A stretch of 64,000 nt of DNA from an uncultured Poribacteria bacterium (GCA_951813565.1 OX638351.1:1632001-1696000); one strand, 5' to 3'. Positions 7,173 through 63,999 are shown, counted from the first letter of the stretch. Program-made: numbers and translations. Notes: generated from the sequence alone by a model not told the origin.

Positions 7173-7575
7173 TACCAAATTAACGGGATTTATCGCATTT
7201 TCCGGACGGTAGGTGCGGTTTCCTAACCGCTCCATAACTGTCAATTTAAGAAAAAAAGCGTTTGTAGTCGTGCAATTCATTGCCAAATCAACGCCAAGCG
7301 CACTTGGGCGAATACGCGTGGTATTCGCCATGACTTGTCGCCTCGGACATTCTGTAGGAGCGAGCTCCAGCTCGCGACCGGGAGGTCGCTCCTACAGAAG
7401 AAAATCGGGGTTGAAAACCCGACAAATGCCAAAAAGCGCATTTGGCGTTGATTTGGCAGCATGCCAAACGCGCATGCTGCGTTGATTCACTCCCACAAGA
7501 GGGTATATCCTTAAATTGACGCATAAGGTACGTTTTCCTAACTGCTCCATAAATATGAATCAAGTTAATGTGGTA
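7173..7575. mobile_element. MITE family A (composite, carries nested elements)
   Basis: TIR TACCAAATTAAC/GTTAATGTGGTA; TAA duplicated at 7170-7172 and 7576-7578; interrupts the LRR gene. Confidence 0.85.
7234..7526. mobile_element. MITE family B nested in MITE A
   Basis: TIR core GTCAATTTAAG/CTTAAATTGAC; flanked by an imperfect 22-bp direct repeat (7212-7233, 7527-7548) that is itself a hairpin. Confidence 0.8.
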
Positions 7576-27799: not shown

Positions 27800-27987
27800 T
27801 AGTAGATTTTACAATTAATGATACACATTGATCGGCGCGCTTGCAAAGCGCGCCTACTTGTGATATAAGAGGCGACGAATGCCATACGCGCATGAGGCGT
27901 TGATTTGGCAATAAATTCGCGACTACAAACGCTGTAAATCCAAAGAAAATGTTCCGGTATTTTAGGTTTTACCAAAATTTTCTGCTA
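27800..27987. repeat. MITE with IS630-like end carrying REPs and a micro-hairpin
   Basis: TA|TAGTAGATTTTACAATTAATG; the same end appears inverted at ~6469-6490; right end approximate. Confidence 0.6.
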
Positions 27988-45616: not shown

Positions 45617-45826
45617 ATAAATCAACGCAGCATGCGCGTATGGCATGCTGCGGGTGTAAACTTAAGAAAAAAATGCTGGATTTTCTCTTGTGGGAGGGAG
45701 ACCTTGTCCGACCGATTTTCGAGATTCAACCAAGTAAATCCGGGTTGAAAACCCGACAAATACCATACGCGTATTTGGCGTTGATTCACTCCCACAAGAA
45801 GATATATCCTTAGAGTTGACACGTAT
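45617..45826. mobile_element. MITE family B with two micro-hairpin inserts
   Basis: 20-bp direct repeats 45597-45616 and 45827-45846 (3 mismatches); ends GTGTAAACTTAAG / GTTGACACGTAT. Confidence 0.78.
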
Positions 45827-56943: not shown

Positions 56944-56991
56944 ATTGGTAATTACGGATAGCGCGTGGGTTGGGTAGAGTTTATGAAACCC

Positions 56992-57201
56992 ATAAGCGTC
57001 AACTTAAGGAAAAAATGTTGGGTTTCCTCTTGTGGGAGGGCTTTCTAAGCCCGATTTTGTGAGACCCAAGCCGTTAAATCGGGGTTGAAAACCCGCAGCA
57101 TGCCAAACGCGCATGCTGCGTTGATTTGGACAAATGCCAAAAAGCGCATTTGGCATTGATTCACTCCCACAAGAAAGATTGGACGCTAAATTGACACCTA
57201 T
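56992..57201. mobile_element. MITE family B with tandem micro-hairpins
   Basis: Perfect 20-bp direct repeat GGGTAGAGTTTATGAAACCC at 56972-56991 and 57202-57221; ends ATAAGCGTCAACTTAAG / CTAAATTGACACCTAT. Confidence 0.88.
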
Positions 57202-57457
57202 GGGTAGAGTTTATGAAACCCGACAATGGCTATCAGCAATCGACTTTCAGCCATCAGCGGTAGGTGCGTTCCATCCTTGGTAGTCGCGCTTTGATGAAGA
57301 TTAAGAAAATATTTCGGTAATTCTAATTTTTCCGTCTTGTTCTTATGTGGATTTCAAACACACCATGAATATAAGAGGCGCAATGAATTGCGCGACTACA
57401 AACGCCGCTAATCTGAAGAAAATGTTAAGATATTTTTAGATTTACTATAATGCCACT

Positions 57458-59003: not shown

Positions 59004-59158
59004 AACGAGTGTAAATATTTTGCCATTAACCATGTGATCTTTCTTGTTGAAAGGATTTGTAATCCCGATTTATCGGGGTTGAAAACCCTCCTACAAGAGA
59101 GGAGAAATACCCATGCCAAAAATTTTACACACCCTGTTCACCTCATAAAACACATTTC

Positions 59159-63867: not shown

Positions 63868-63999
63868 TACCATTTCTAATTGATCGCCTTTCATTAACAA
63901 AAAACGCGTTTGTAGTCGCGCAATTCATTGCCAAATCAACGCCAAATGCGCGTTTGGCATTTGGCGCCTCGGACATTCTTCAACTCAGCTTGAACCGAT
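63868..63999. mobile_element. MITE family C (runs off the window) with micro-hairpin insert
   Basis: TTA|TACCATTTCTAATTGA; homologous to the 30887 copy plus 34 extra bp. Confidence 0.75.

Follow-up and report, generated by a model that had tools for sequence, protein, structure and literature searches.

Head-to-tail stacks of REP-like hairpin units in a REPIN-like element of an uncultured Poribacteria bacterium: probable growth by insertion at a rebuilt site combined with local duplication

Introduction

How do two different hairpin units of 34-35 nt come to be stacked at the same site of a repeated element, in one order at one locus and in the opposite order at another? The question is raised by a stretch of 64,000 nucleotides (hereafter the window) from an uncultured Poribacteria bacterium (GCA_951813565.1, OX638351.1:1632001-1696000), whose genome is one contig of 5.43 Mb with 43% G+C. 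A preliminary description of the window had reported the same two hairpins, here called A and B, in reversed order at two loci, and a direct sequence check confirmed the reversal base for base, apart from one tail base in B. After GGGGTTGAAAACCC, positions 7421-7489 read B (7421-7453)-TG-A (7456-7487)-CA and positions 57095-57163 read A (57095-57126)-TG-B (57129-57161)-CA, and CTCCCACAAG follows in both cases. At 45755-45788, a single B-like unit with CA precedes CTCCCACAAG. The B at 57129-57161 differs from the B at 7421 by one private tail base, GCATTGATT replacing GCGTTGATT. The features of the three loci and of related repeats in the window are collected in Table 1.

Table 1. Hairpin units, host repeats and related features in the window
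Feature	Position	Strand	Remark
Unit A (GCAGCATGCC..GCATGCTGC-GTTGATT) with terminal TG	57095..57128	+	canonical 34-nt insert; probably the younger unit
Unit B (GACAAATGCC..GCATTTGGC-ATTGATT, one private tail change) with CA	57129..57163	+	probably the founder; abuts the REP tag
Inverted REP arm hairpin GGGGTTGAAAACCC	57081..57094	+	3' foot CCC plus the unit's first G would give a rebuilt C^G entry site
REP tag CTCCCACAAG, reverse complement CTTGTGGGAG, GTGG/GTAG-like	57164..57173	+	separated from its hairpin by the stack
Forward REP arm CTCTTGTGGGAG-GGCTTTCTAAGCCC-GAT of REPIN-like doublet	57027..57055	+	pairs with 57164-57175 in the predicted fold
Whole host MITE with REPIN-like core and stack inside	56992..57201	+	TIRs ATAAGCGTCAACTTAAGG (56992-57009) and CTAAATTGACACCTAT (57186-57201)
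Left copy of 20-nt direct repeat GGGTAGAGTTTATGAAACCC flanking the MITE	56972..56991	+	
Right copy of 20-nt direct repeat GGGTAGAGTTTATGAAACCC flanking the MITE	57202..57221	+	
Second locus: REP hairpin (7407-7420), B, TG, A, CA, tag CTCCCACAAG (7490-7499)	7407..7499	+	common B-A arrangement
Third locus: REP hairpin, one B-like unit (45755-45786), CA, tag	45742..45798	+	one-unit stack
Unoccupied REP of the host family: GGGGTTGAAAACCC (59075-59088) followed directly by TCCTACAAG	59075..59097	+	empty site
A-type unit in a TIR of the MITE that also holds 45755	45620..45652	-	right junction TAT, CC^TA target type
Solitary unit with canonical TGG end	27873..27905	+	target GAGGC^GCAAT.. REP
Solitary B-type unit with canonical TGG end	63934..63966	-	target GAGGC^GCAATGAATT REP

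The host element

The stacks lie inside a larger repeat. The motif CTCC[CT]ACA that follows the units is the GTAG-like tag of a REP, and the stacking site lies between this tag and the REP hairpin; on the other strand the host site reads CTTGTGGGAG-GGGTTTTCAACCC, a GTGG/GTAG-like tag and, behind it, a hairpin with a GC foot. About 30 nt away there is an inverted partner, CTTGTGGGAG-GGCTTT..AAGCCC-GAT, which makes the host a REPIN-like inverted doublet (CTTGTGGGAG-GGCTTT..AAGCCC-GAT ... ATC-GGGGTTGAAAACCC(C)-TCCCACAAG) present in dozens of copies. The doublet in turn belongs to a MITE about 170 bp long, which has the TIRs CATAGGCGTCAATTTAAG and CTTAAATTGACGCCTATG and direct repeats of roughly 20 nt on its flanks. 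The predicted fold of positions 56990-57206 (217 nt; -47.7 kcal/mol, z -5.84) is a single long hairpin from which the two units branch off, and none of 200 shuffles folded equally well. The window stack is situated between two co-oriented sugar-kinase genes, and no Rfam family was found in the window at the gathering threshold.

Two intact RAYT genes were identified in the genome (NF047646, 132.5 and 116 bits at a cut-off of 80), each flanked by its own GTAG-tagged REP family of the same form as the host REP, and a REP of the host family stands ahead of a third RAYT-like frame, which is broken by a TAG. The nearest relatives of one of the RAYT proteins are titled Candidatus Poribacteria. IS200/IS605 copies are also present, with end hairpins unrelated to the units. 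According to the passages on target recognition in PMC3479197, a RAYT must read the tag of its REP; since the host is a REP with such a tag, the stack lies exactly between the REP hairpin and the tag that the RAYT requires. Among ten PF01797 (Y1) hits, no enzyme gene flanked by a pair of units was found, which counts against the explanation preferred below. Similarly, in 26 intervals that lie between opposed units, the longest ORFs, when read by eye, included nothing transposase-like and had the look of ordinary genes. As no gene is bracketed by the units, any enzyme that moves them must act in trans.

A genome-wide family of hairpin units

Units were defined, over the whole genome and on both strands, by an exact GTTGATT tail preceded by the hairpin core ATGCC..GCAT, because a search allowing one mismatch in the tail was too noisy (989 found against 345 expected in a shuffled genome). 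This definition yielded 580 units among 2358 occurrences of GTTGATT. The layout consists of a G, a hairpin of about 9 bp, the conserved unpaired tail GTTGATT and TG, giving 34-35 nt, and the tail usually continues as TGG (346 of the 580). By stem, 110 units belong to family A, 212 to B, 58 to C, 26 to D and 139 to E, with 35 others.

As single-stranded DNA, unit A is predicted to form a 9-bp hairpin (-10.7 kcal/mol, z -2.54), and the 9-bp stem is perfect in 237 of the 580 units and carries one mismatch in a further 131. Several Watson-Crick pair types occur at stem positions 1, 3, 4, 5 and 8, with compensatory changes at position 3 (CG 194, AT 105, TA 58), position 4 (GC 188, AT 179) and position 5 (AT 259, CG 105); the compensatory A-T found at position 1 in 24 units argues for this position being paired as well. 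The units are thus imperfect palindromes in the 20-40 nt range of REPs, with a structure kept across variants, and their copy number is high (580 exact-tail units; 509 matches to the unit pattern against none for the reversed control). An unpaired GTAG or CGTC tag of the REP kind is replaced by GTTGATT(TGG), or (CCA)AATCAAC on the other strand. The units also differ from MITEs, as they have no TIRs beyond their own hairpin and leave no duplication at clean insertions. No strand bias was seen (232/261 and 43/44 by replichore), a comparison with little power because the GC-skew extremes at 0.49 and 5.05 Mb make one "replichore" cover most of the genome.

Junctions between units and with the tag

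All 86 adjacent unit pairs in the genome are arranged head to tail on one strand, and at each of these 86 junctions GTTGATT is followed by TG. In contrast, the 79 junctions between a unit and CTCC[CT]ACA carry CA (54), CG (24) or CC (1) and never TG. Of the 415 units with neither a second unit nor the tag directly next to them, 267 are likewise followed by TG, in 260 cases as TGG. In other genomes of the genus, the 55 junctions among the matches listed, beyond which lie 22 more matches, gave CA 44, CC 5, CG 3, TA 2, TC 1 and TG 0.

In the preliminary description, the terminal dinucleotide was said to follow position in the stack and not unit identity, with TG marking inner units and CA the last one. 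For inner units this held without exception, while the rule for the last unit had to be widened to CA or CG, and TG, although universal between units, proved not to be special to inner positions. Because TG stands at unit junctions and at most other places, and never at the tag, it is the unit's own normal end at C^G targets, and CA or CG is specific to the founder junction with the REP tag. A common origin of TG and CA from an ancestral CG by CpG decay was rejected, as the genome has a CpG observed/expected ratio of 1.03 and the inner joints are TG in 86 of 86; such decay is possible as a source of CA from CG at the tag junction only.

Stack size and order vary between host sites

A genome-wide count of stacks had been suggested as a check on the preliminary description, which would have been contradicted by fixed two-unit alleles; the host sites instead hold from none to six units. 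The census started from 163 anchors (at most one substitution), for which the distance to the next tag was measured and then parsed. Sixty sites were empty (0 nt), 23 contained one unit (34/35 nt; 17 B, 5 A, 1 unclassed) and 25 contained two plain units (69 nt; 23 B-A, 2 A-B), while at 4 sites two units were accompanied by a reverse unit nested in the B loop (102/103 nt). Three plain units were present at 5 sites (103 nt; 4 A-B-A, 1 B-A-A) and three units with a nested unit at 2 (136/138 nt). Larger stacks had four units (5 sites, 138 to 172 nt), five units (2 sites, 171/172 nt; B-A-A-A-A and A-B-A-B-A) or six (1 site, 207 nt; (B-A)3). The remaining anchors comprised 21 without a tag within 700 nt, plus a handful of complex or unrelated cases. 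The A-B order of the window is therefore rare but not unique, being found in 2 of the 25 two-unit stacks and at the start of A-B-A and A-B-A-B-A. Within one near-identical host subfamily, 0, 1, 2, 3, 4 or 5 units occur at different loci, and four loci with different flanks in the window's own host subfamily carry B, B, B-A and A-B.

Units of the same type within a stack are often identical. This was the case for 23 of 28 pairs, against 9.2 +/- 2.6 expected (2000 permutations, maximum 21), and an identity so far above chance indicates that local tandem duplication also makes arrays grow. For example, the private variant CAAACTCGC is present in all four A units of one stack, and in another stack the two B units, one holding a nested unit, have the private tail GGTGTTGATT in common. 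C-type arrays of 5 and 9 units are found elsewhere in the genome. The permutations thus show statistically that existing stacks also gain or lose units, or B-A pairs, through local tandem duplication or deletion, so array growth is a mix of insertion and local duplication. The earlier view of insertion as the builder of arrays is supported by the empty and filled sites described below, yet it has to be shared with duplication.

Empty and filled target sites

As many units lie inside other multi-copy repeats, paralogous empty and filled versions of one context could be compared. The clean inserts always have the form G..GTTGATTTG (G..GATTTG), measure 34/35 nt and are located at C^G without duplication, with 1-3 nt of ambiguity. 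The targets ATAC^GCGC (12 cases) and ACAC^GCGC (10 cases) belong to the loops of A units, and AGGC^GCAA (7 cases), CCCC^GATT (3 cases) and TCCC^GTAG (3 cases) each to another REP family. ACCC^GACA (2 cases) is the host site itself, one of the two cases being the window locus, and CCCC^GCAG (1 case) received a three-unit stack as an insert of 104 nt. In many cases the host repeat has spread one and the same event, so that only about seven independent target contexts speak for C^G. At the window locus, comparison with three paralogous host copies, which read ..AAAACCC-GACA.. with B right after the hairpin, leaves exactly A plus TG, 34 nt, as the extra sequence.

These comparisons also place the ends of the insert. 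The breakpoint had been expected inside or beside the TTGATT tail; the insert instead spans from the hairpin's first G to TG, two bases past GATT, and as the canonical insert ends in TG, this dinucleotide is the 3' end of each unit. An insert of the form TG plus unit, which growth at the 3' side would need, was not found among the clean empty/filled cases. Occupancy of the C^G targets, empty against filled, was 155 to 19 and 64 to 9 in two REP families and 5 to 12 and 12 to 46 in the other comparisons; saturation of targets was ruled out, since most C^G targets of the two REP families are still empty.

Two other junction classes were observed. The founder junction, AAACCC^CTCC[CT]ACA, leaves CA or CG and not TG. 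In a third class, at CC^TA, C plus the unit is added and nothing on the 3' side, the targets being the MITE end ACACC^TATGGG and the REP tag GCTCC^TACAG. No single cut-and-join rule was found for the C^G, founder C^C and CC^TA junctions, which is a further point against the preferred explanation.

Distribution in related genomes

The unit pattern was present in all 40 genomes of the genus that were searched, in 4 to 509 copies, the present genome having the most and the reversed control none. When the TTTGG end was included in the pattern, it occurred in every one of the 37 other genus members, in 8 of the 57 genomes from the sister genus (1-10 copies) and in none of 56 genomes from 20 further genera of the phylum. 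The window locus itself is not shared: in same-genus genomes that match both flanks, the orthologous spacer lacks the repeat mosaic of 56950-57450, and 4-55 bp separate the kinase genes. The flanking genes are 74-86% identical in same-genus genomes.

Other species show further states of the host site. In one genome (G005), all 16 host sites fetched carry one B-type unit followed by CA. At 3 of these 16 sites, an E-type unit with the canonical ..TTTG end is found at ATAC^GCGC of the B loop, and other loci fetched have this loop intact. In a second genome (G006), the founders are A, C, C and B-TG-A. Founders of types A, B and C in different species, mostly with CA, make the founder junction look recurrent and bound to a mechanism, and not like one old accident.

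A model for stack growth

Taken together, these observations make it reasonably probable that A and B are stem variants of a family of genus-specific REP-like mobile hairpins, and that their stacks are formed by insertion at a C^G site rebuilt on the 5' side, combined with local duplication. Insertions have hit other REP families, the loops of other units and, in the REPIN-like MITE, the 3' foot of the REP hairpin, and, as judged from the paralogs compared, the units enter C^G without target duplication. According to this model, a founder would enter a REP between its hairpin and its tag (AAACCC^CTCC[CT]ACA) by the second junction type, leaving CA or CG. With CCC as the last bases of the REP hairpin and G as the first base of every unit, CCC^G would be restored by a resident unit on the 5' side of the stack, and the next unit would enter there, bringing its own TG. 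Since TG is the 3' end of the insert, in an array X-TG-Y-CA the X together with its TG would have been placed just before the G with which the resident Y begins. As such, A would have entered in front of a resident B at 57095, and B in front of a resident A at 7421.

If C^G is rebuilt by each arrival, stacks should grow at the 5' edge, which would make inner junctions always TG, the newest unit 5' and the rightmost unit the oldest, and the founder's own junction type would explain why the last dinucleotide tracks position and not unit identity. The sequential insertion at a regenerated site that had been proposed earlier is partly supported, by the head-to-tail stacks, the paralogs with 0-5 units and the exact insert in the window, once the site is moved to the 5' edge. 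Divergence from the common variants is similar along the stack, with a change in 2 of 41 first, 3 of 22 middle and 4 of 43 last units, and so lends the proposed age order no independent support. The presence of B-A beside B-only copies in one host subfamily counts against pure 5' insertion, as B-A cannot arise from B in this way; deletion between two GCGTTGATT tails of a B-A ancestor or conversion between MITE copies must therefore occur. Moreover, the dominance of B-A (23 of 25 two-unit stacks) and the strict alternation fit duplication of B-A pairs as well as or better than alternating insertion.

As the agent of movement, a single-strand HUH/Y1 (RAYT-like) nuclease is most likely, and it would act in trans on the hairpin and its AATCAAC tag. 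The combination of a hairpin with a tag at its foot, a dinucleotide target and no duplication fits such an enzyme. In TnpA-REP, the AG of GTAG is described as the guide that specifies C^T (passages of PMC3479197). On the tag strand of the unit, AATCAAC-G-stem, the equivalent bases are CG, and an unpaired outer G would let them specify C^G; the compensatory A-T at stem position 1 speaks against this condition. A bolder and rather doubtful extension would regard these 34-nt hairpins as the smallest self-targeting mobile DNAs of a bacterial lineage, CG-guided hyperparasites of REPINs. A Y1/HUH nuclease would then read the hairpin with the CG at its foot as a guide and cut C^G, and since the insert starts with G behind a C, it would rebuild its own target and turn stacks into chronological records with the newest unit 5'. 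The units would parasitise REPINs by coming between the REP hairpin and the GTAG-like tag, which the RAYT of that REPIN needs to read. The joint ..GTTGATTTG|G.. is the same as the junction of an excised circle, and arrays could consequently also come from multimeric or rolling-circle products.

Alternative explanations

The signs of local duplication would also suit a history without ongoing insertion, in which one ancestral insertion of B-A (or of A and B) was carried by the MITE and subsequently remodelled by slippage, recombination or conversion. Recombination would take place between the GCGTTGATT tails and between MITE copies, with A-B as a remnant of A-B-A or B-A-B. We regard this as unlikely on balance, even though the identical same-type pairs (23 of 28 against 9.2 expected), the common private CAAACTCGC and GGTGTTGATT within stacks, the periodic arrays (B-A, A-B-A, B-A-B-A, A-B-A-B-A and (B-A)3), the homogeneous 5- and 9-unit C-type arrays and the excess of B-A among two-unit stacks (23 of 25) all agree with it, and tail-to-tail slippage would automatically keep CA or CG outside and TG inside. 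However, slippage is unable to make a first unit or to supply a unit type missing from a stack, whereas near-identical host copies carry no unit, A only, B only, A-B or B-A, and the founder type is A, B or C depending on the species. Furthermore, loss of the leftmost unit would have just 1 nt of homology to work with, and the extra 34 nt in the window equal the canonical insert at six unrelated targets.

The stacks could also be functional structures maintained by selection, such as RNA stabilisers, terminators or protein-binding arrays like BIMEs, with mobility incidental. The window stack, lying between co-oriented sugar-kinase genes, would be co-transcribed with them, the hairpins are kept by compensatory changes and the family persists in 40 of 40 genus genomes searched. 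We nevertheless consider a primary function improbable, given that the mosaic is missing from the orthologous spacer of same-genus genomes matching both flanks (gap 4-55 bp), that copies per genome range from 4 to 509, that units sit in other repeats and in each other's loops, and that the window has no Rfam match. Still harder to credit is an assembly error in a repeat-rich region as the origin of the swapped order. The locus is present in sponge-metagenome runs, and in Logan short-read contigs of four public runs the left-flank contig stops at 57055/57056, cover at unique depth restarts at 57180 in three of the four, and none of the listed contigs spans the stack; listed contig joints with short sides (21-36 nt) in repeats were left unused. 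This break speaks for such an error, but the flanks up to 57055 and from 57180 are identical in the four runs and the genome is one 5.43-Mb contig. Moreover, A-B occurs at a second locus and opens the four A-B-A stacks and the A-B-A-B-A stack, and the B at 57129 has a private tail change unseen in the 7421 copy, all of which makes such an error highly improbable.

Comparison with known repeats

The insertion model invites comparison with known small mobile DNAs. IS200/IS605 elements use a short specific target without duplication and recognise a hairpin together with adjacent guide bases. The units resemble them in their fixed short target without duplication, C^G at seven contexts, but have a single hairpin instead of two subterminal ones, no tnpA or other gene, and only 34 nt. 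To our knowledge, exact insertion junctions have not been defined for REPs, whereas the units show them (C^G, no duplication). REPs and REPINs, which RAYT (TnpA-REP) Y1 HUH transposases mobilise, share further traits with the units: passages of PMC3116915, PMC3479197 and PMC3733652 describe imperfect palindromes, 20-40 nt long and carrying a conserved unpaired tag at one foot, in hundreds of copies with several stem families per genome, inserted into or beside other REPs and lineage-restricted but vertically persistent. A further link is the host of the stack, a GTAG/GTGG-tagged REP doublet in its own right, in a genome that encodes RAYTs.

The units are best read as REP-like miniature mobile DNA, yet they depart from REPs in tag, cognate RAYT and dimer orientation. 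Their tag is AATCAAC (GTTGATT on the other strand) and not GTAG or CGTC, the tags given in the passages of PMC3733652, and no RAYT gene is flanked by units in the way that a cognate RAYT is flanked by its REPs. In addition, units are solitary or head to tail (86 of 86 pairs), unlike the inverted doublet that is the replicative unit of a REPIN; known REPs dimerise head-to-head or tail-to-tail, and according to one passage "HT dimers [are] negligible" (PMC3733652). The BIMEs of Enterobacteria, arrays of REPs (PMC2817692), are similar to the stacks in having two alternating REP types and a copy number that varies by locus, but they alternate in orientation, whereas the units of a stack are all co-directional with a fixed 2-nt joint.

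In architecture alone, the sequences being unrelated, the stacks also correspond to the pneumococcal BOX elements, boxA-(boxB)n-boxC, with a variable number of internal modules, here 0-6, between fixed ends. In the passages of PMC3049150, the tandem copies of boxB between the fixed outer modules range from 0 to many, variation is greater in longer arrays and the module folds alone as a side branch; these passages present it as an internal module of BOX and make no mention of independent insertion. The units also occur alone at many other targets and two module types alternate, and the place of the outer modules is taken by a REP hairpin and its tag. The SDRs of heterocyst-forming cyanobacteria likewise nest as very small repeats; Elhai et al. 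in 2008 reportedly found them to be about 21-27 nt long, mobile by empty/filled comparison, often nested in MITE-like repeats and sometimes tandem. SDRs are of a different phylum and of different sequence, and HIP1 has only 50 occurrences in the present genome, which is not cyanobacterial.

Within the literature library searched, no published description of such repeats in Poribacteria was found. The movement of REP-type sequences is still unsettled and known REPs rarely give exact empty/filled junctions, while this family gives dozens of them, with a defined 34/35-nt insert, a dinucleotide target, nesting and readable array joints. If the proposed mechanism is true, the hairpin with its AATCAAC tag, cut at C^G, would be a testable substrate for a RAYT-like nuclease, and the stacks would be an instance of repeats parasitising repeats exactly where the host tag meets its hairpin. 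The units may furthermore be useful as a strain marker for uncultured sponge symbionts. For annotation, they serve as a warning that a mosaic of nested repeats from at least four families may fill intergenic regions of Poribacteria.

Transposase genes and their repeats

On the downstream side of the one uninterrupted RAYT (REP-associated tyrosine transposase) gene listed in the table, its cognate GTAG-tagged REPs (GTCGCGAGCTGGAG..CTCCTACA) are repeated in tandem with a period of about 45 nt. Upstream of the gene, a single GTTGATT-type unit splits the tag region of a REP. Elsewhere, a host-family REP (TTGTAGGAGGGTTTTAAACCCC) immediately precedes a RAYT-like frame that a single TAG interrupts, and so the cognate transposase of the stack-hosting REPIN may be a pseudogene in this genome. 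There is also an IS200/IS605-type element in three copies with 94-95% identity. Its 139-aa ORF spans a Y1_Tnp match and adjoins a 370-aa ORF, which we take from its size and position to be a putative tnpB. The end hairpins of the element read CCCC(C)T.CCTTTAGGTAG.GGG.

Flanks of the host MITE

The host MITE is bordered on both sides by direct repeats of 20-22 nt with the motif GGGTAGAGC..GAAACCC, in either orientation, and private variants of these repeats match exactly on the left and right sides. Genome-wide, among the 45 MITE copies with both ends located, flank identity reached at least 19 of 21 bases in 15, compared with 7% for mismatched pairs. These repeats reflect one of two things: a target duplication of unusual length, or insertion of the MITE into a fifth repeat family via a copying mechanism.

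Repeat arrays, targets and composite units

The empty REP (ATCGGGGTTGAAAACCCCTCC[CT]ACAA) also occurs outside any MITE, where its copies follow one another in tandem at intervals of approximately 37-57 nt. The commonest 14-mers genome-wide come from a different GTAG-tagged REP (GCGTTTGTAGTCGCGCAATTCATTGCGC, approximately 135 copies), which the units often use as a C^G target (19 filled vs 155 empty). In addition, a composite B unit of 66/67 nt carries a reverse-oriented unit inside its loop, and it is present in at least nine host stacks, so nested composites spread as units.

In public runs, coverage of window 57361-57401 exceeds the unique depth several-hundred-fold, which indicates another high-copy repeat; this repeat (query 1027-1151) has many matching places in same-genus genomes.

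Coordinates of the features (C1, the single contig of genome G000; L-numbers, extracted loci)
Feature	Position	Strand	Remark
RAYT gene	L039:609-1097		L039 = G000:C1:241400-243300
RAYT-like frame, one TAG interruption	G000:C1:3549623-3549949	-	L040
IS200/IS605-type element, copy 1	G000:C1 226940-230296		L001-L003 set
IS200/IS605-type element, copy 2	G000:C1 2157299-2160655		L001-L003 set
IS200/IS605-type element, copy 3	G000:C1 3744235-3747591		L001-L003 set
Direct repeats at host MITE ends	window 56972-56991 and 57202-57221		pattern also genome-wide
Empty-REP tandem array	G000:C1 about 2245790-2246010		
Empty-REP tandem array	G000:C1 about 3053000-3053110		
Empty-REP tandem array	G000:C1 about 3958729-3958880		minus-strand script coordinates
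Composite B unit, examples	G000:C1:2632697 and 4427657		
Further high-copy repeat	window 57279-57442		just upstream of ROK kinase gene
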